Positions 379-4,661 of a DNA stretch of 5,340 nt are shown in pieces. Made by a program: the position numbers and the translations under genes. This DNA is from a virus (lineage: Duplodnaviria; Heunggongvirae; Uroviricota; Caudoviricetes): the IMG/VR virus record IMGVR_UViG_2541047120_000017; one strand, written 5' to 3'. Every line of letters starts with the position of its first letter. Position 1 is the stretch's first letter. A model generated the notes under the pieces. It saw only the letters and a list, made by a program, of their open reading frames with translations. It was not told the DNA's origin and ran no database searches.

Positions 379-666
379 TCAGATAGAGAAGGGAAATTGT
401 CGCCGAGAATGTGTCACGCTTACAATCTCAATGCTTGAAGCAGCTACTCTGTACAGGATTATGTAGTTAGGGTGGGTCACGATCTCTCTCAATCCAGAAA
501 CCCGTTCGCTTGGTGGATATAAGTACGGATGCTCAGATAGAGGTAATACCGATGTTTCAATGCGTATTTTTAGTCTACGTGCTGCCGGTGGGTTCTCCTT
601 GGCGATGTAAGTTATGATCTGGCGCAAATCATCGCGAGCAGACGGTAGCCATAAAATGGGTAACAT
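379..666 (-). CDS. parE: ParE/RelE-family toxin of a type II toxin-antitoxin system (ParE2-like, 95 aa)
   Basis: ORF track 379..666. Motifs LWLPSARDDLRQIITYIA, LPLSEHPYLYPPSERVSGLREIV and HPNYIILYRV...IEIV fit the ParE fold. Its ATG overlaps the stop of the upstream small ORF (minus-strand TAATG at 668-664). Confidence 0.85.
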   Translation of the reverse strand: MLPILWLPSARDDLRQIITYIAKENPPAARRLKIRIETSVLPLSEHPYLYPPSERVSGLREIVTHPNYIILYRVAASSIEIVSVTHSRRQFPFSI

Positions 667-857
667 TACTCGCTCTTGTTAGTTACAGCAATTTGAGCAA
701 TAAGATTTTCCATTTCAGCCATTACCTCGTCATGTGGAATTGCGGGGCGAGTGTCTGCAAGGCTTGACGTTACTTTAGTGCGCAACCATTCGTTGTAACT
801 GTTTTCTTGTTCGGTAGTTTCGAATTCTGAAACTATCGGAGAAAGGGCTGTACCCAT
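666..857 (-). CDS. paaA: Small acidic antitoxin (PaaA2-like, 63 aa) partnered with the ParE toxin
   Basis: ORF track 666..857. GAGGAG lies 7 nt upstream of the ATG at 857. The stop is coupled to the toxin start. Size and the segment SEFETTEQENSYNEWLRTKV...RPAIPHDEV match the recalled PaaA2 antitoxin. Confidence 0.75.
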   Translation of the reverse strand: MGTALSPIVSEFETTEQENSYNEWLRTKVTSSLADTRPAIPHDEVMAEMENLIAQIAVTNKSE

Positions 858-884: not shown

Positions 885-1286
885 TCACGCCCGGCGGCTT
901 TTTTGTGCCGCCAGCCACCTAGCAATGGTTTCTTCCATTGATTTTTTCTTGTCTTTGATTTCTTGAAGCATTTTTTCTTGGTCTTCCTCAGGAAACGCAC
1001 TAAAAGCTTGGAGCAGTTCGCGTTGGCGAGGACCAATTTTCATCGTGTCAGGGGTGAAAATTTGCTCACACTCTTCAGGAGGCAATAAAAACCAATGCAA
1101 TGGATGCCCTGAAACCTCAACCAGTTTATCCAAACTTGAGGCTTTAGGTGTAGCCTTACCGCTGACCCATTGTTGAACAGTTTGTTGTGTCACACCAATT
1201 CTACGGGCAAGCTCAGCCTGGCTCCATCCAGTTTCCTGAAGAAGCTTGCTGATTCTGTACATAGATACTTCTAGGGCGCTCATCAT
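885..1286 (-). CDS. paaR: DicA/cI-type HTH repressor without a peptidase domain (PaaR2-like regulator; likely prophage maintenance repressor), 133 aa
   Basis: ORF track 885..1286. XRE-type HTH (SQAELARRIGVTQQTVQQWVSGK) and a C-terminal part (RELLQAFSAFPEEDQEKMLQE) parallel DicA architecture. It is divergent from the Cro-like gene. Tandem ATGATG start with no SD; alternative start at 1283. Confidence 0.85.
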   Translation of the reverse strand: MMSALEVSMYRISKLLQETGWSQAELARRIGVTQQTVQQWVSGKATPKASSLDKLVEVSGHPLHWFLLPPEECEQIFTPDTMKIGPRQRELLQAFSAFPEEDQEKMLQEIKDKKKSMEETIARWLAAQKSRRA

Positions 1287-2089: not shown

Positions 2090-2599
2090 ATGAGTAATGA
2101 CAAAAAATTGACACTGAGCGTTTACGAAAACAGTCCGCACATCTGGCGTGGCGGTTTATCTGATGTGGAGCTGGCAGAGTGGTTGATACATAAAGCTAAT
2201 GCGCTGCTCTGGCGTTTGTCAGCCAGAGAACAGCGCAAGGAAACCAGAATAAAGCTGGCTGATGCAGAAGCGTGTGCCGGGCTTATTGAGGATTATACAA
2301 ATCTTGGTATTTCTTCAGCAGAGAGTGATCCCATTCAGCCTCTGAGCAGGGAGTCAATCCAGCACGCTGGTTGTATGGCACATCTTGTAACTGCTCGTCA
2401 ACATGAGGTGGGTATTGGATCACTTCCGGCGGGATATTCGCTGATTCCAGAGCTGGTTGAAGCAAGAAAATCAGTTCAGAAAAAGAGAGATGACGCACTT
2501 CAATTATTGAGAGAGCACTATGGCGCGATACCAGAATGCGAACAGCGTCGATACCCTGAAGGTTATGAATGGATGCAGTCTCTTTTTGAAGTTCGCTAA
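2090..2599 (+). CDS. Hypothetical protein of unknown function (169 aa), start chosen at MSNDKK
   Basis: In-frame ATG at 2090, 13 nt after the ydaT-like stop. Hand-counted first-codon-position base use is coding-like (G about 34 percent), and CAG>CAA, AAA>AAG. The track ORF 2039..2599 would overlap ydaT. It competes with an antisense ORF at 2283-2738. Confidence 0.55.
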   Translation: MSNDKKLTLSVYENSPHIWRGGLSDVELAEWLIHKANALLWRLSAREQRKETRIKLADAEACAGLIEDYTNLGISSAESDPIQPLSRESIQHAGCMAHLVTARQHEVGIGSLPAGYSLIPELVEARKSVQKKRDDALQLLREHYGAIPECEQRRYPEGYEWMQSLFEVR

Positions 2600-2816
2600 T
2601 CAATATGTCGAGACGAAGGTATGTTTCGGCGCGCAGCCAGGCTCTGTAATCCGGGAGCATTTCGGGGCTGTTACACCAGCGGTTTGTTGCTGCAACATTT
2701 AATACATGAGCCTGATAAAGGCTTTTCAAAAAATACATGTCGAACCTCCTCTGGTTCTGTCGATTGGGAACCACAGATTATATCCGGAGGAAGGTTCGGC
2801 ACCAGATGAGGTAGCC

Positions 2817-3908
2817 ATGCGTGATTACGCAAAAGTTTCTCCGCGATTCTGGCTGGGAGAAACGGGGAGAGAACTTAGAAAGGCGGGTGCAGAAGCGCAA
2901 GTTGTTGCTTTTTACCTGATGACATCCCCTCACGCAAATATGCTGGGTTTGTATTACCTGCCAGTTTTATACCTTGCTCATGAAACCGGGCTTGGTCTGG
3001 AAGGGGCTTCAAAGGGGCTTAAAAGGGCTGTTGAAGCTGGTTTTTGTAGCTATGACCATGATGCAGAGATGGTCTGGGTCCATGAAATGGCAGCCTGGCA
3101 GGTTGGGGAAACGTTGAAGCCTGGCGATAACCGTTGTGCAGGTGTCAGGAATGAGTATGCATCATTACCTGAAAACGCTTTTCTGTCAGTGTTTTACGAC
3201 AGATATAAAACGGATTTCCATCTGGATGTGAGGCGGAATAATAGCCGAAATTCGGTAAGGGGCTTCGAAGGGGCTTTTAAGGGGCTTCGAAGCCAAGAAC
3301 AGGAACAGGAGCAGGAGAAAGAACAGGAACAGGACAAAAACACTATGGTTCATGGCAAAAAAAACACCACGAACCAGGCAGGGGATGTTCAGACCGTCAA
3401 TCCTGGTCAGCCAGCAGGCACGACACCGGAAGCCGATTCGGGCGCTGTGCAGCAGGTGATGACCGCAGGGTCGGAGCAATCACACCAACTGCAGCAGCCT
3501 GAAGCCGATTCCGCCATTCAGCGGGAAGCCGATCGGGTAGTCCCGGAAAGCACCGGGCAGTCTGTGGGACGAGTGGATTATCCGGATGTGTTCGAACAGG
3601 TCTGGCGGGAATACCCGTTGCGTGCTGGGGCAAACCCGAAGAAATCCGCTTTCAGTGCCTGGAAGGCCAGATTGCGCGAGGGGGTGCCACCAGAGACCAT
3701 GCTGGATGGTGTGAGGCGTTACGCGAGATACCTGGCGGCGACCGGGAAAGCGGGAACGGAATTTGTTCAGCGAGCGACGACGTTTTTTGGGCCGGACCGG
3801 AATTTTGAAAACCCCTGGTTGCTCCCGGTAAGCGGCACGAACAACCAGCGTTGTGTGAATCATATTTCTGAACCGGATACCGAAATTCCGCCGGGATTCA
3901 GGGGGTGA
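2817..3908 (+). CDS. Replication initiation protein (lambda O-like role; occupies the position just upstream of the DnaC-like gene), about 363 aa
   Basis: ORF track 2706..3908. Start preferred at the ATG at 2817 because GAGG lies 5 nt upstream, whereas the ATG at 2706 has no SD. N-terminal domain, low-complexity E/Q-rich linker and C-terminal domain. Iteron-like DNA repeats lie inside the gene. Immediately followed by the helicase-loader gene. Confidence 0.8.
   Translation: MRDYAKVSPRFWLGETGRELRKAGAEAQVVAFYLMTSPHANMLGLYYLPVLYLAHETGLGLEGASKGLKRAVEAGFCSYDHDAEMVWVHEMAAWQVGETLKPGDNRCAGVRNEYASLPENAFLSVFYDRYKTDFHLDVRRNNSRNSVRGFEGAFKGLRSQEQEQEQEKEQEQDKNTMVHGKKNTTNQAGDVQTVNPGQPAGTTPEADSGAVQQVMTAGSEQSHQLQQPEADSAIQREADRVVPESTGQSVGRVDYPDVFEQVWREYPLRAGANPKKSAFSAWKARLREGVPPETMLDGVRRYARYLAATGKAGTEFVQRATTFFGPDRNFENPWLLPVSGTNNQRCVNHISEPDTEIPPGFRG
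2988..3030. repeat. Iteron-like cluster A: GGGCTT-type motifs at 2988, 3004, 3014 and 3025 (AAGGGGCTTC / AAAGGGGCTT / AAAAGGGCTG)
   Basis: Direct repeats at 10-11 bp spacing inside the initiator coding sequence. Successive copies are read in different codon frames. Confidence 0.4.
3257..3289. repeat. Iteron-like cluster B: three tandem 11-bp units AAGGGGCTTCG / AAGGGGCTTTT / AAGGGGCTTCG
   Basis: Exact tandem repeats with 11-bp period. The three copies are translated in three different frames (RGF / EGAF / KGLR), so the repeat is a DNA-level feature. Confidence 0.5.
3297..3338 (+). repeat. Hexanucleotide tandem repeat (GAACAG)n, 7 units with variants, encoding an (EQ)n linker
   Basis: Units GAACAG GAACAG GAGCAG GAGAAA GAACAG GAACAG GACAAA read directly from the sequence. 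In frame with the initiator gene. Confidence 0.7.
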
Positions 3909-3914
3909 TGTGGC

Positions 3915-4661
3915 ATGAAAAACATTGCGGCAGCCGGGGTTCTTGAACGTATTCGCAGACTTGCACCACAGGCGTCGGTTCCACCGTACCGGACGGTGGA
4001 GGAGTGGCGGGAATGGCAACTTGCTGAAGGACGAAAACGCAGCGAGGAGATTAACCGCCAGAATCACCAGTTGCGGGTGGAAAAAATCCTGAATCGTTCG
4101 GGCATCCAGCCTCTGCACAGCAAATGCTCGTTTGCGAATTATCAGGTGCAGAACGACGGGCAAAAATACGCGCTGAGCCAGGCCAAATCCATAGCTGACG
4201 AACTGATGACCGGGTGCACGAATTTTGTGTTCAGCGGTAAAACCGGCACCGGGAAAAATCACCTTGCAGCGGCGATGGGTAACCGGCTGATGGCGAAGGG
4301 GCGCAGCGTGATTATCGTCACCGTGTCTGATGTCATGAGCGTGTTGCATGACAGCTACGACAACGGCAAATCCGGGGAAAAATTTTTACAGGAGCTTTGC
4401 AGTGTTGATTTGCTGGTCCTGGATGAAATAGGCGTTCAGCGGGAGACGAAAAACGAGCAGGTGGTATTACACCAGATAATTGATCGCCGGACAGCATCAC
4501 TGTGCAGTGTCGGGATGTTAACAAACCTGAATCATGCCGCAATGAGTACACTTCTTGGTGAGAGGATTATGGACCGCATGACCATGAACGGTGGTCGATG
4601 GGTGACGTTTAACTGGGATAGCTGGCGTCCAAATGTCAGCAATATGAGGGTTGTGAAGTAA
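3915..4661 (+). CDS. dnaC: DnaC-type AAA+ helicase loader (phage replication protein; YdaV-position), 248 aa
   Basis: ORF track 3915..4661. Walker A FSGKTGTGKNHLAAA, with the GKN variant characteristic of DnaC. Walker B LLVLDEIG. C-terminal WVTFNWDSWR resembles the DnaC C-terminus. SD GGGGGTGA upstream. Confidence 0.9.
   Translation: MKNIAAAGVLERIRRLAPQASVPPYRTVEEWREWQLAEGRKRSEEINRQNHQLRVEKILNRSGIQPLHSKCSFANYQVQNDGQKYALSQAKSIADELMTGCTNFVFSGKTGTGKNHLAAAMGNRLMAKGRSVIIVTVSDVMSVLHDSYDNGKSGEKFLQELCSVDLLVLDEIGVQRETKNEQVVLHQIIDRRTASLCSVGMLTNLNHAAMSTLLGERIMDRMTMNGGRWVTFNWDSWRPNVSNMRVVK

Follow-up and report, generated by a model that had tools for sequence, protein, structure and literature searches.

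Short DNA boxes conserved at the nucleotide level form a putative bipartite origin within the replication initiator gene of a Rac-like lambdoid prophage

The DNA analyzed here, hereafter the window, is a 5,340-nucleotide stretch of a Caudoviricetes virus (IMG/VR record IMGVR_UViG_2541047120_000017) that matches a prophage region in the chromosome of Escherichia coli O157:H7 at 100% identity and has the gene order of a Rac-like lambdoid early region. Its sequence identifies the gene at 2817-3908 (plus strand, 363 amino acids) as an uncharacterized replication initiator of a lambdoid prophage. Directly 3′ of it lies a gene for a DnaC/IstB-like AAA+ helicase loader (3915-4661, plus strand; Pfam IstB_IS21, 3.9e-19, and Bac_DnaA, 3e-8). 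Within the initiator gene, two arrays of the short box AAGGGGCTT are followed by a tract of purine-rich hexamers. We propose that the boxes are probably iterons bound by the N-terminal domain of the protein in whose gene they lie, and that they belong to a bipartite, lambda-style origin. Of 5,426 complete E. coli genomes, 469 contain the 5′ region of the gene (2706-3400) at a coverage of at least 80%, and in 432 records the identity is 99% or more. An open reading frame (ORF) of 400 amino acids starting at 2706 was discarded as the initiator and the start at 2817 was preferred.

The initiator had no family match in Pfam and NCBIfam searches, and on this ground it is not a homologue of lambda O. 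PHROGs placed its halves in phrog_25210, phrog_1701 (“DnaD-like helicase loader”) and phrog_3729 (“replication initiation protein”); phrog_1701 matched both halves (2e-68 and 5e-59), while no Pfam model did. The Pfam replisome-organiser model in particular matched neither this initiator nor that of phage Tritos, to which we return below. AlphaFold2 confidently predicts a winged helix for the N-domain (about residues 1-140, nt 2817-3236), with an H1-S1-H2-H3-S2-wing-S3 topology and structural matches to known winged helices. Helix 3 of this fold spans residues 60-73 (nt 2994-3035). Disorder is predicted from residue 145, giving a repeat-encoded linker of about residues 145-185, and the C-terminal domain follows at about nt 3381-3908.

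The initial annotation had placed a candidate origin in this linker, consisting of three exact 11-bp units, seven GAACAG-type hexamers and an A-rich stretch ending in A8. The 9-mer AAGGGGCTT does occur exactly three times on the plus strand, at 3257, 3268 and 3279 with 11-bp spacing, followed by a half unit AAGCC (3290-3294). The full units read AAGGGGCTTCG, AAGGGGCTTTT and again AAGGGGCTTCG, so that exact repetition holds for the 9-bp core, and the complete 11-mers are identical in units 1 and 3 only. Tandem Repeats Finder reported the same array as period 11, 3257-3292, 3.3 copies, consensus AAGGGGCTTCG. Because the units start at gene offsets 440, 451 and 462 (mod 3 = 2, 1 and 0), they are read in three frames, as had been noted. 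This downstream array, cluster 2 (3257-3294), encodes the linker start V-R-G-F-E-G-A-F-K-G-L-R-S, residues 147-159 in the AlphaFold2 model, a disordered stretch just after the confident N-domain. The likeness to the position of the lambda origin within O was thus well seen: the repeats lie at the boundary between N-domain and disordered linker, with the loader gene next door.

The extent of the element, on the other hand, had been underestimated. A second array of AAGGGGCTT, cluster 1 (3001-3037, plus strand), lies 256 bp upstream of cluster 2 and makes the element bipartite. It consists of boxes at 3001 and 3012, a degenerate third unit and GAAGC, with units AAGGGGCTTCA (3001) and AAGGGGCTTAA (3012) at the same 11-bp period, and it encodes E62-G-A-S-K-G-L68, within helix 3 of the predicted winged helix. 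Allowing up to one mismatch, the window contains six copies of AAGGGGCTT, five of them exact, against a mean of 1.4 in 200 dinucleotide-preserving shuffles, none of which reached six. The box is only partly palindromic (AAG-GGG-CTT).

Homologues of the N-terminal half are widespread. With tblastn against phage records, matches of 57-78% identity came from the Shigella Stx phages 75/02 and POCJ13 as well as from Klebsiella, Acinetobacter, Escherichia (Fraca) and Ralstonia phages; 75/02 and Fraca are complete phages. Viral contigs contain more than 560 homologues. One genome per species was then scanned with peptide patterns taken from within the N-domain but outside the repeats, so that the resulting sample of 79 loci was not biased towards the motif. 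These loci come from Enterobacterales, Acinetobacter, many Burkholderiales and metagenome-assembled genomes (MAGs) of other phyla. Nearly every homologue has two boxes in plus orientation at gene nt 185 and 196 and two or three at nt 430-465. The copy number of cluster 2 is 2-3 but reaches up to 8, as in an Acidobacteriota MAG (L073; gene nt 470-555). Outside the initiator gene, the motif is roughly as frequent in these loci as expected by chance.

A codon alignment of 67 homologues (43-78% protein identity) covers hosts whose GC content at third codon positions (GC3) ranges from 0.31 to 0.89. Despite this range, the codons of cluster 1 hardly vary: Glu62 is GAA in 61 of 61, Gly63 GGG in 60 of 63, Ala64 GCT in 58 of 64, Lys66 AAG in 58 of 58, Gly67 GGG in 60 of 65 and Leu68 CTT in 62 of 66. 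The third base of the Ser65 codon belongs to the spacer and is free, with an entropy of 1.6 bits. Box codons have entropies of 0-0.5 bits, whereas other conserved codons of 4-6-fold degeneracy have a median of 1.76 and a minimum of 1.09 (Mann-Whitney p = 9e-6; p = 0.011 for 2-fold codons). Synonymous variation is therefore suppressed precisely within the 9-mer cores, whereas the 2-nt spacers vary freely. The initial annotation had held that the motif is selected as DNA and not as a peptide repeat, and the comparison at synonymous sites to which it had pointed bears this out.

Cluster 2 leads to the same conclusion by a different route. It reads AAGGGGCTT in 14 of the 67 homologues, including the window, and there encodes the peptide EGASKGL in some and, with an extra unit, the frame-shifted VRGFEGAFKGL in others. 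In 52 of the 67, it is inverted to the exact reverse complement AAGCCCCTT and encodes EAPSKPL, at the same place and ahead of the same CGAAGCC-A(A/G)-GAR-CAR continuation. A rough neighbor-joining tree requires about eight changes of orientation, and the palindromic CTTCGAAG junctions between units would ease such small inversions. By its sequence, then, cluster 2 retains the DNA motif and not the peptide. Frozen synonymous sites, an array inverted in most homologues and units read in different frames lead us to conclude from the sequence comparisons that the 11-bp repeats are selected as DNA, and that they are conserved as such across very distant bacteria.

The boxes are linked to the N-domain and vary with it. 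Of the protein elements, the N-domain alone recurs in every one of the 66 other loci, whereas 5 of them have the C-domain of the window, 22 a DnaC-like gene and 0-4 the upstream genes. More distant homologues, at about 30% identity (L080-L085), have the same layout, but their cluster 1 carries GAAAGGGTTTC and their cluster 2 GAAACCCTTTC, and both arrays have therefore changed together. Homology (~92%) between the C-terminal half and many other E. coli phage initiators starts at 3337, right after the hexamers, which puts the module junction, as judged from the sequence, at about 3337, the 3′ end of the hexamer tract; 3′ of the hexamers, the N-domain homologues differ among themselves. In phage Tritos (L166) a different N-domain, with no homology to that of the window in a profile comparison, is fused to the same C-domain. 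The Tritos gene carries four GTCACG boxes at gene nt 124-175 (L166 1149-1200) and five at 385-440, about 255 bp downstream, and its downstream region (L166 1410-1520) runs from GTCACG boxes to ACAGAT/AAAGAT hexamers and into the shared C-module. Since Tritos has the same layout and spacing, the architecture of two arrays plus hexamers recurs with different pairs of box and domain.

The hexamer tract itself (3297-3338, plus strand) encodes EQEQEQEKEQEQDK. All seven GAACAG-type units previously described are present, in the order GAACAG, GAACAG, GAGCAG, GAGAAA, GAACAG, GAACAG, GACAAA, four of them exact, and Tandem Repeats Finder gave a period-6 array at 3297-3334 with 6.3 copies of GAACAG. Positions 3295-3334 are 88% purine, the strongest purine/pyrimidine strand asymmetry in the window. 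The tract is 53% AT, and its stacking energy is -53 kcal/mol per 40 bp against a window mean of -55. Across 60 loci, its AT fraction is 0.05-0.11 above the locus mean and its mean purine fraction 0.76-0.81. The family profile shows a second AT excess at -110 to -80, over F/Y/K/D-rich codons around “FLSVFYDRYKTDFHL” (about 3180-3220 in the window), for which amino-acid composition could account.

Of 69 homologues, 65 have a similar tract after cluster 2. Its peptide is of the QE or KE type in 61 of the 69 loci, but three have the tract in another frame (RARAGAG, EAGTGAG and REGEREG), with the downstream C-domain intact, and one has it on the opposite strand (PAPAPA). Its codons vary freely among homologues (GAA/GAG, CAG/CAA), and the number of hexamers is polymorphic among near-identical E. 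coli copies (L086-L117, NC_013008), with one fewer or three more; these variants measure 78, 84 or 102 nt between fixed anchors, and all keep the three 11-mers, with a single C-to-T variant in a spacer. The changes of frame and strand hint at a role of the purine hexamers as DNA, and a tolerant linker explains them equally well. As for the A-rich stretch (3339-3366, plus strand), the A8 run is there (3357-3364), but the stretch is only moderately A-rich, about 55-60% AT, and is part of the exchangeable C-terminal module. In Tritos, whose C-terminal module is 92% identical, GGCGTAAAAAACGCC stands at this position. The A8 run was therefore rejected as a component of the element.

The boxes are thus sites at the DNA level, and most plausibly iterons of a bipartite origin, given the frozen synonymous sites, the inversion, the covariation and the linkage to the N-domain. 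In the reading we favor, by analogy with lambda and with iteron replicons, the winged-helix N-domain would bind the 9-bp boxes as double-stranded DNA, the 11-bp period aligning them along the same side of the helix. An O-some-like initiator complex would assemble on the two arrays, possibly looping out the intervening ~225 bp, and this complex would stress and open the adjacent strand-asymmetric hexamer tract (3297-3338), as the lambda analogy suggests. The C-domain would then recruit the host DnaB through the DnaC-like loader encoded next door. Rightward transcription activates the lambda origin (PMC5043065), and transcription through the initiator gene may do the same here.

Several observations weigh against this proposal. 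An AT-rich, thermodynamically weak unwinding element was sought beside the arrays in the window and none was found. The boxes are 9 bp long at an 11-bp period, unlike the 19-bp inverted repeats of lambda, and cluster 2 is freely inverted relative to cluster 1 and the hexamers, which is unusual for an oriented origin. A search of the literature for the motif strings returned only unrelated primer or small interfering RNA (siRNA) matches. The viral contigs L170 and L174 have the same AAGGGGCTT box with an N-domain only 33% identical, and in other viral contigs the ORF that contains the array lacks any detectable resemblance to the N-domain; covariation of box and domain is for these reasons not strict. 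The prophage itself may also be defective, at least in the O157 copy, because ISEc8 (IS66 family) truncates a DUF977 gene about 2 kb downstream of the loader gene (L001 7039-8695).

The viral contigs have features of their own. L170 and L174 carry four tandem boxes plus single boxes at 33-bp (3 x 11) intervals, together with CAGTAT-type hexamers. Six uncultivated viral contigs (L169, L171, L172, L175, L176 and L177), in which no N-domain homologue was detected, have 4-8 AAGGGGCTT boxes at an 11-bp period. In L175 the array (793-847) forms the 3′ end of an ORF of 172 amino acids that has no family match and showed no homology to the window N-domain in a profile comparison; the ORF downstream of it contains a domain like the C-terminal domain of the RNA polymerase alpha subunit.

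A bolder version of the origin hypothesis, possible but doubtful in our opinion, takes the initiator gene to be a doubly coded, self-referential origin. The codons of the recognition helix (E62-L68) would be one of the arrays that this same helix recognizes, and since specificity and site would share the same nucleotides, they would have to change together. The hexamer tract would be selected as DNA for unwinding or single-strand capture, a role comparable in logic to that of DnaA-trios, and its translation into linker would be incidental, yielding QEQEQE, KEKEKE, RARAGAG, EAGTGAG, REGEREG or PAPAPA according to lineage.

It is rather improbable that the boxes, although bound by the initiator, serve only control (autorepression by roadblock, titration, handcuffing or incompatibility), with the DNA being opened elsewhere, for instance in an AT-rich intergenic segment. 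The missing unwinding element and the free orientation of cluster 2 would suit such a role, and the weakest 40-mers of the window are indeed intergenic (about 2072, 1279, 1345 and 286). So would a 5′-truncated second copy of the initiator in a Burkholderiales MAG (L062, 920-1365), 1.2 kb upstream of the intact gene. Its cluster 1 has expanded to seven exact tandem AAGGGGCTT units that break the frame, and cluster 2 (+ - - -) and the hexamers are retained; this copy resembles an element reduced to its sites, with a possible function in titration or incompatibility, or else a remnant. However, repeats at the domain boundary of an initiator, a strand-asymmetric tract and a loader gene make up the layout of the lambda origin (PMC7466680, PMC5043065), and no other repeat array fit to serve as an origin was seen in the window. 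Moreover, in the low-GC contigs L171, L172, L175 and L177 the array runs directly into very AT-rich DNA (TATAGTATAGTATATATTAGTATTAATAAAG...), which by sequence has the appearance of the classic arrangement of iterons plus unwinding element.

The repeats could instead be sites of another protein, from the host or the phage, or sequences at a module boundary that promote exchange of initiator halves, but we consider this quite unlikely. The mosaic junction directly after the hexamers would be explained, as would the presence of the same box with an N-domain of 33% identity and in ORFs without detectable similarity. Nevertheless, the hosts range from Enterobacterales and Acinetobacter to Burkholderiales and beyond, the neighboring genes differ, and the N-domain alone is constant. 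Cluster 1 lies far from the junction, and a role in recombination would leave an 11-bp phased array in two places unexplained.

Hardly more credible, and if anything slightly less so, is an action of the arrays as RNA or single-stranded DNA, through a long-range helix of about 20 bp regulating translation or mRNA stability, or through a hairpin in single-stranded DNA. The arrays are complementary in the 52 of 67 homologues where cluster 1 is in plus and cluster 2 in minus orientation, and segment 2990-3300 folds somewhat better than its shuffles (z = -3.0). In the window and 13 homologues, by contrast, both arrays have the same orientation, which makes the long-range helix impossible in this lineage, and motif and synonymous sites are kept anyway. 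The predicted fold pairs each array locally and not with the other, no structure is common to both orientation classes, and an Rfam search of the whole window gave no match. Long-range RNA pairing was therefore rejected as a general explanation. Finally, a mere peptide repeat or slippage product without DNA function, which the low-complexity linker peptides and the variable hexamer number among E. coli isolates would fit, is possible for the hexamers but is contradicted for the 11-mers by synonymous sites frozen across the whole GC3 range next to free spacers, by inversion with a complete change of peptide and by a period of 11 bp that no peptide repeat can have, so that for the repeats as a whole we give it almost no credence.

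An origin inside an initiator gene is already a known kind of element. The lambda origin in gene O and the 6-iteron origins of Stx phages 933W and P27 are likewise embedded in the central part of the initiator gene, where the N-terminal DNA-binding part meets the C-terminal part (PMC7466680, PMC5043065). They share with our candidate the repeated initiator sites (putative here), a near all-purine strand tract alongside and a gene for a helicase-loading partner directly downstream; at the lambda origin, too, purine/pyrimidine strand asymmetry adjoins the iterons (PMC5043065). Also shared are the effect of iteron number on protein length and the exchange of the N-terminal part together with its sites as one module. 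The differences from lambda are equally clear: the initiator is no O homologue, the loader is DnaC/IstB-like instead of lambda P, 9-bp boxes at an 11-bp period stand in place of 19-bp inverted repeats, the adjoining tract is not AT-rich, and there are two arrays 256 bp apart, one of them within the coding sequence of a folded domain.

Other systems resemble the window in part. SPP1 G38P/oriL and the rep genes of the lactococcal phages Tuc2009 and TP901-1 are initiators of the replisome-organiser type with an internal origin. In these, a winged-helix or DnaD-like N-domain binds direct repeats inside its own gene, as we suppose for the window, where binding is putative. The Tritos type shares the C-domain at 92% and the layout of two arrays plus hexamers but differs in the box (GTCACG instead of AAGGGGCTT), and the N-domains have no detectable similarity. 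P4 ori and crr are two clusters of the same short initiator box separated by kilobases, and the P4 initiator is a primase-helicase; the window is alike in having two separated clusters of one short box, but differs in their distance and in the type of initiator. In the iteron plasmids pPS10, F, RK2 and P1, winged-helix Rep proteins act on phased direct repeats, and the specificities of initiator and iteron co-evolve (PMC4980987, PMC5043065). Their iterons are 17-22 bp long, intergenic and accompanied by AT-rich 13-mers and DnaA boxes, in contrast to the 9-bp sites within coding sequence found here.

The remaining genes of the window are those of the prophage control region. A ParE toxin/PaaA2 antitoxin pair (379-857, minus strand) directly adjoins the prophage repressor gene, which encodes a cI-like helix-turn-helix protein (885-1286, minus strand), and lies between two copies of an operator-like element. 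This palindromic element of about 39 bp, ACAATAAAAAACTGT-N9-ACAGTTTTT(T/A)ATTGT, occurs at 288-327 and 1323-1361, 1035 bp apart. One copy is between the divergent cI-like and cro-like genes and the other beyond the toxin-antitoxin pair, and from their sequence they look like an OR/OL pair for the prophage repressor. A YdaS-like Cro (1395-1667) and a YdaT-like protein (1651-2076) are encoded next, and an ORF without known function separates the YdaT-like gene from the initiator. Here, two long ORFs overlap on opposite strands: the one at 2090-2599 (plus) fits the direction of the operon and matches phrog_8304 end to end (4e-120), and the one at 2283-2738 (minus) carries the PGAP annotation “ECs1072 family” (NF033230, 2e-30). 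A DUF1627 gene after the DnaC/IstB-like gene is the last in the order.

We searched the literature for this element and found no paper describing it, and publications on Rac oriJ/ydaU and on replisome-organiser origins contained nothing about this initiator family. What is new here is the uncharacterized initiator family itself, the 9-bp boxes at an 11-bp period, and a bipartite arrangement with one array in the codons of a putative recognition helix. New as well are the tolerated inversion of an array and a purine-rich tract where an AT-rich one is expected.

To our knowledge, most origins of temperate phages, apart from lambda and a few models, are unmapped. Here, a candidate origin in a family without a Pfam model can be recognized by a short sequence rule, namely two arrays of AAGGGGCTT boxes with an 11-bp period and purine hexamers after them; this family ranges over prophages of E. 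coli O157, Shigella Stx phages, Klebsiella, Acinetobacter, Burkholderiales and beyond. The gene also offers an unusually clean natural case of a coding sequence under constraint at the DNA level, with one array overlapping the codons of the putative recognition helix. If our reading is correct, standard dN/dS or other codon-based analyses would be misleading at the box sites, and the element would provide a test case for the opening of an origin without an AT-rich element and would help to predict, for these prophages, replication compatibility and the exchange of modules.

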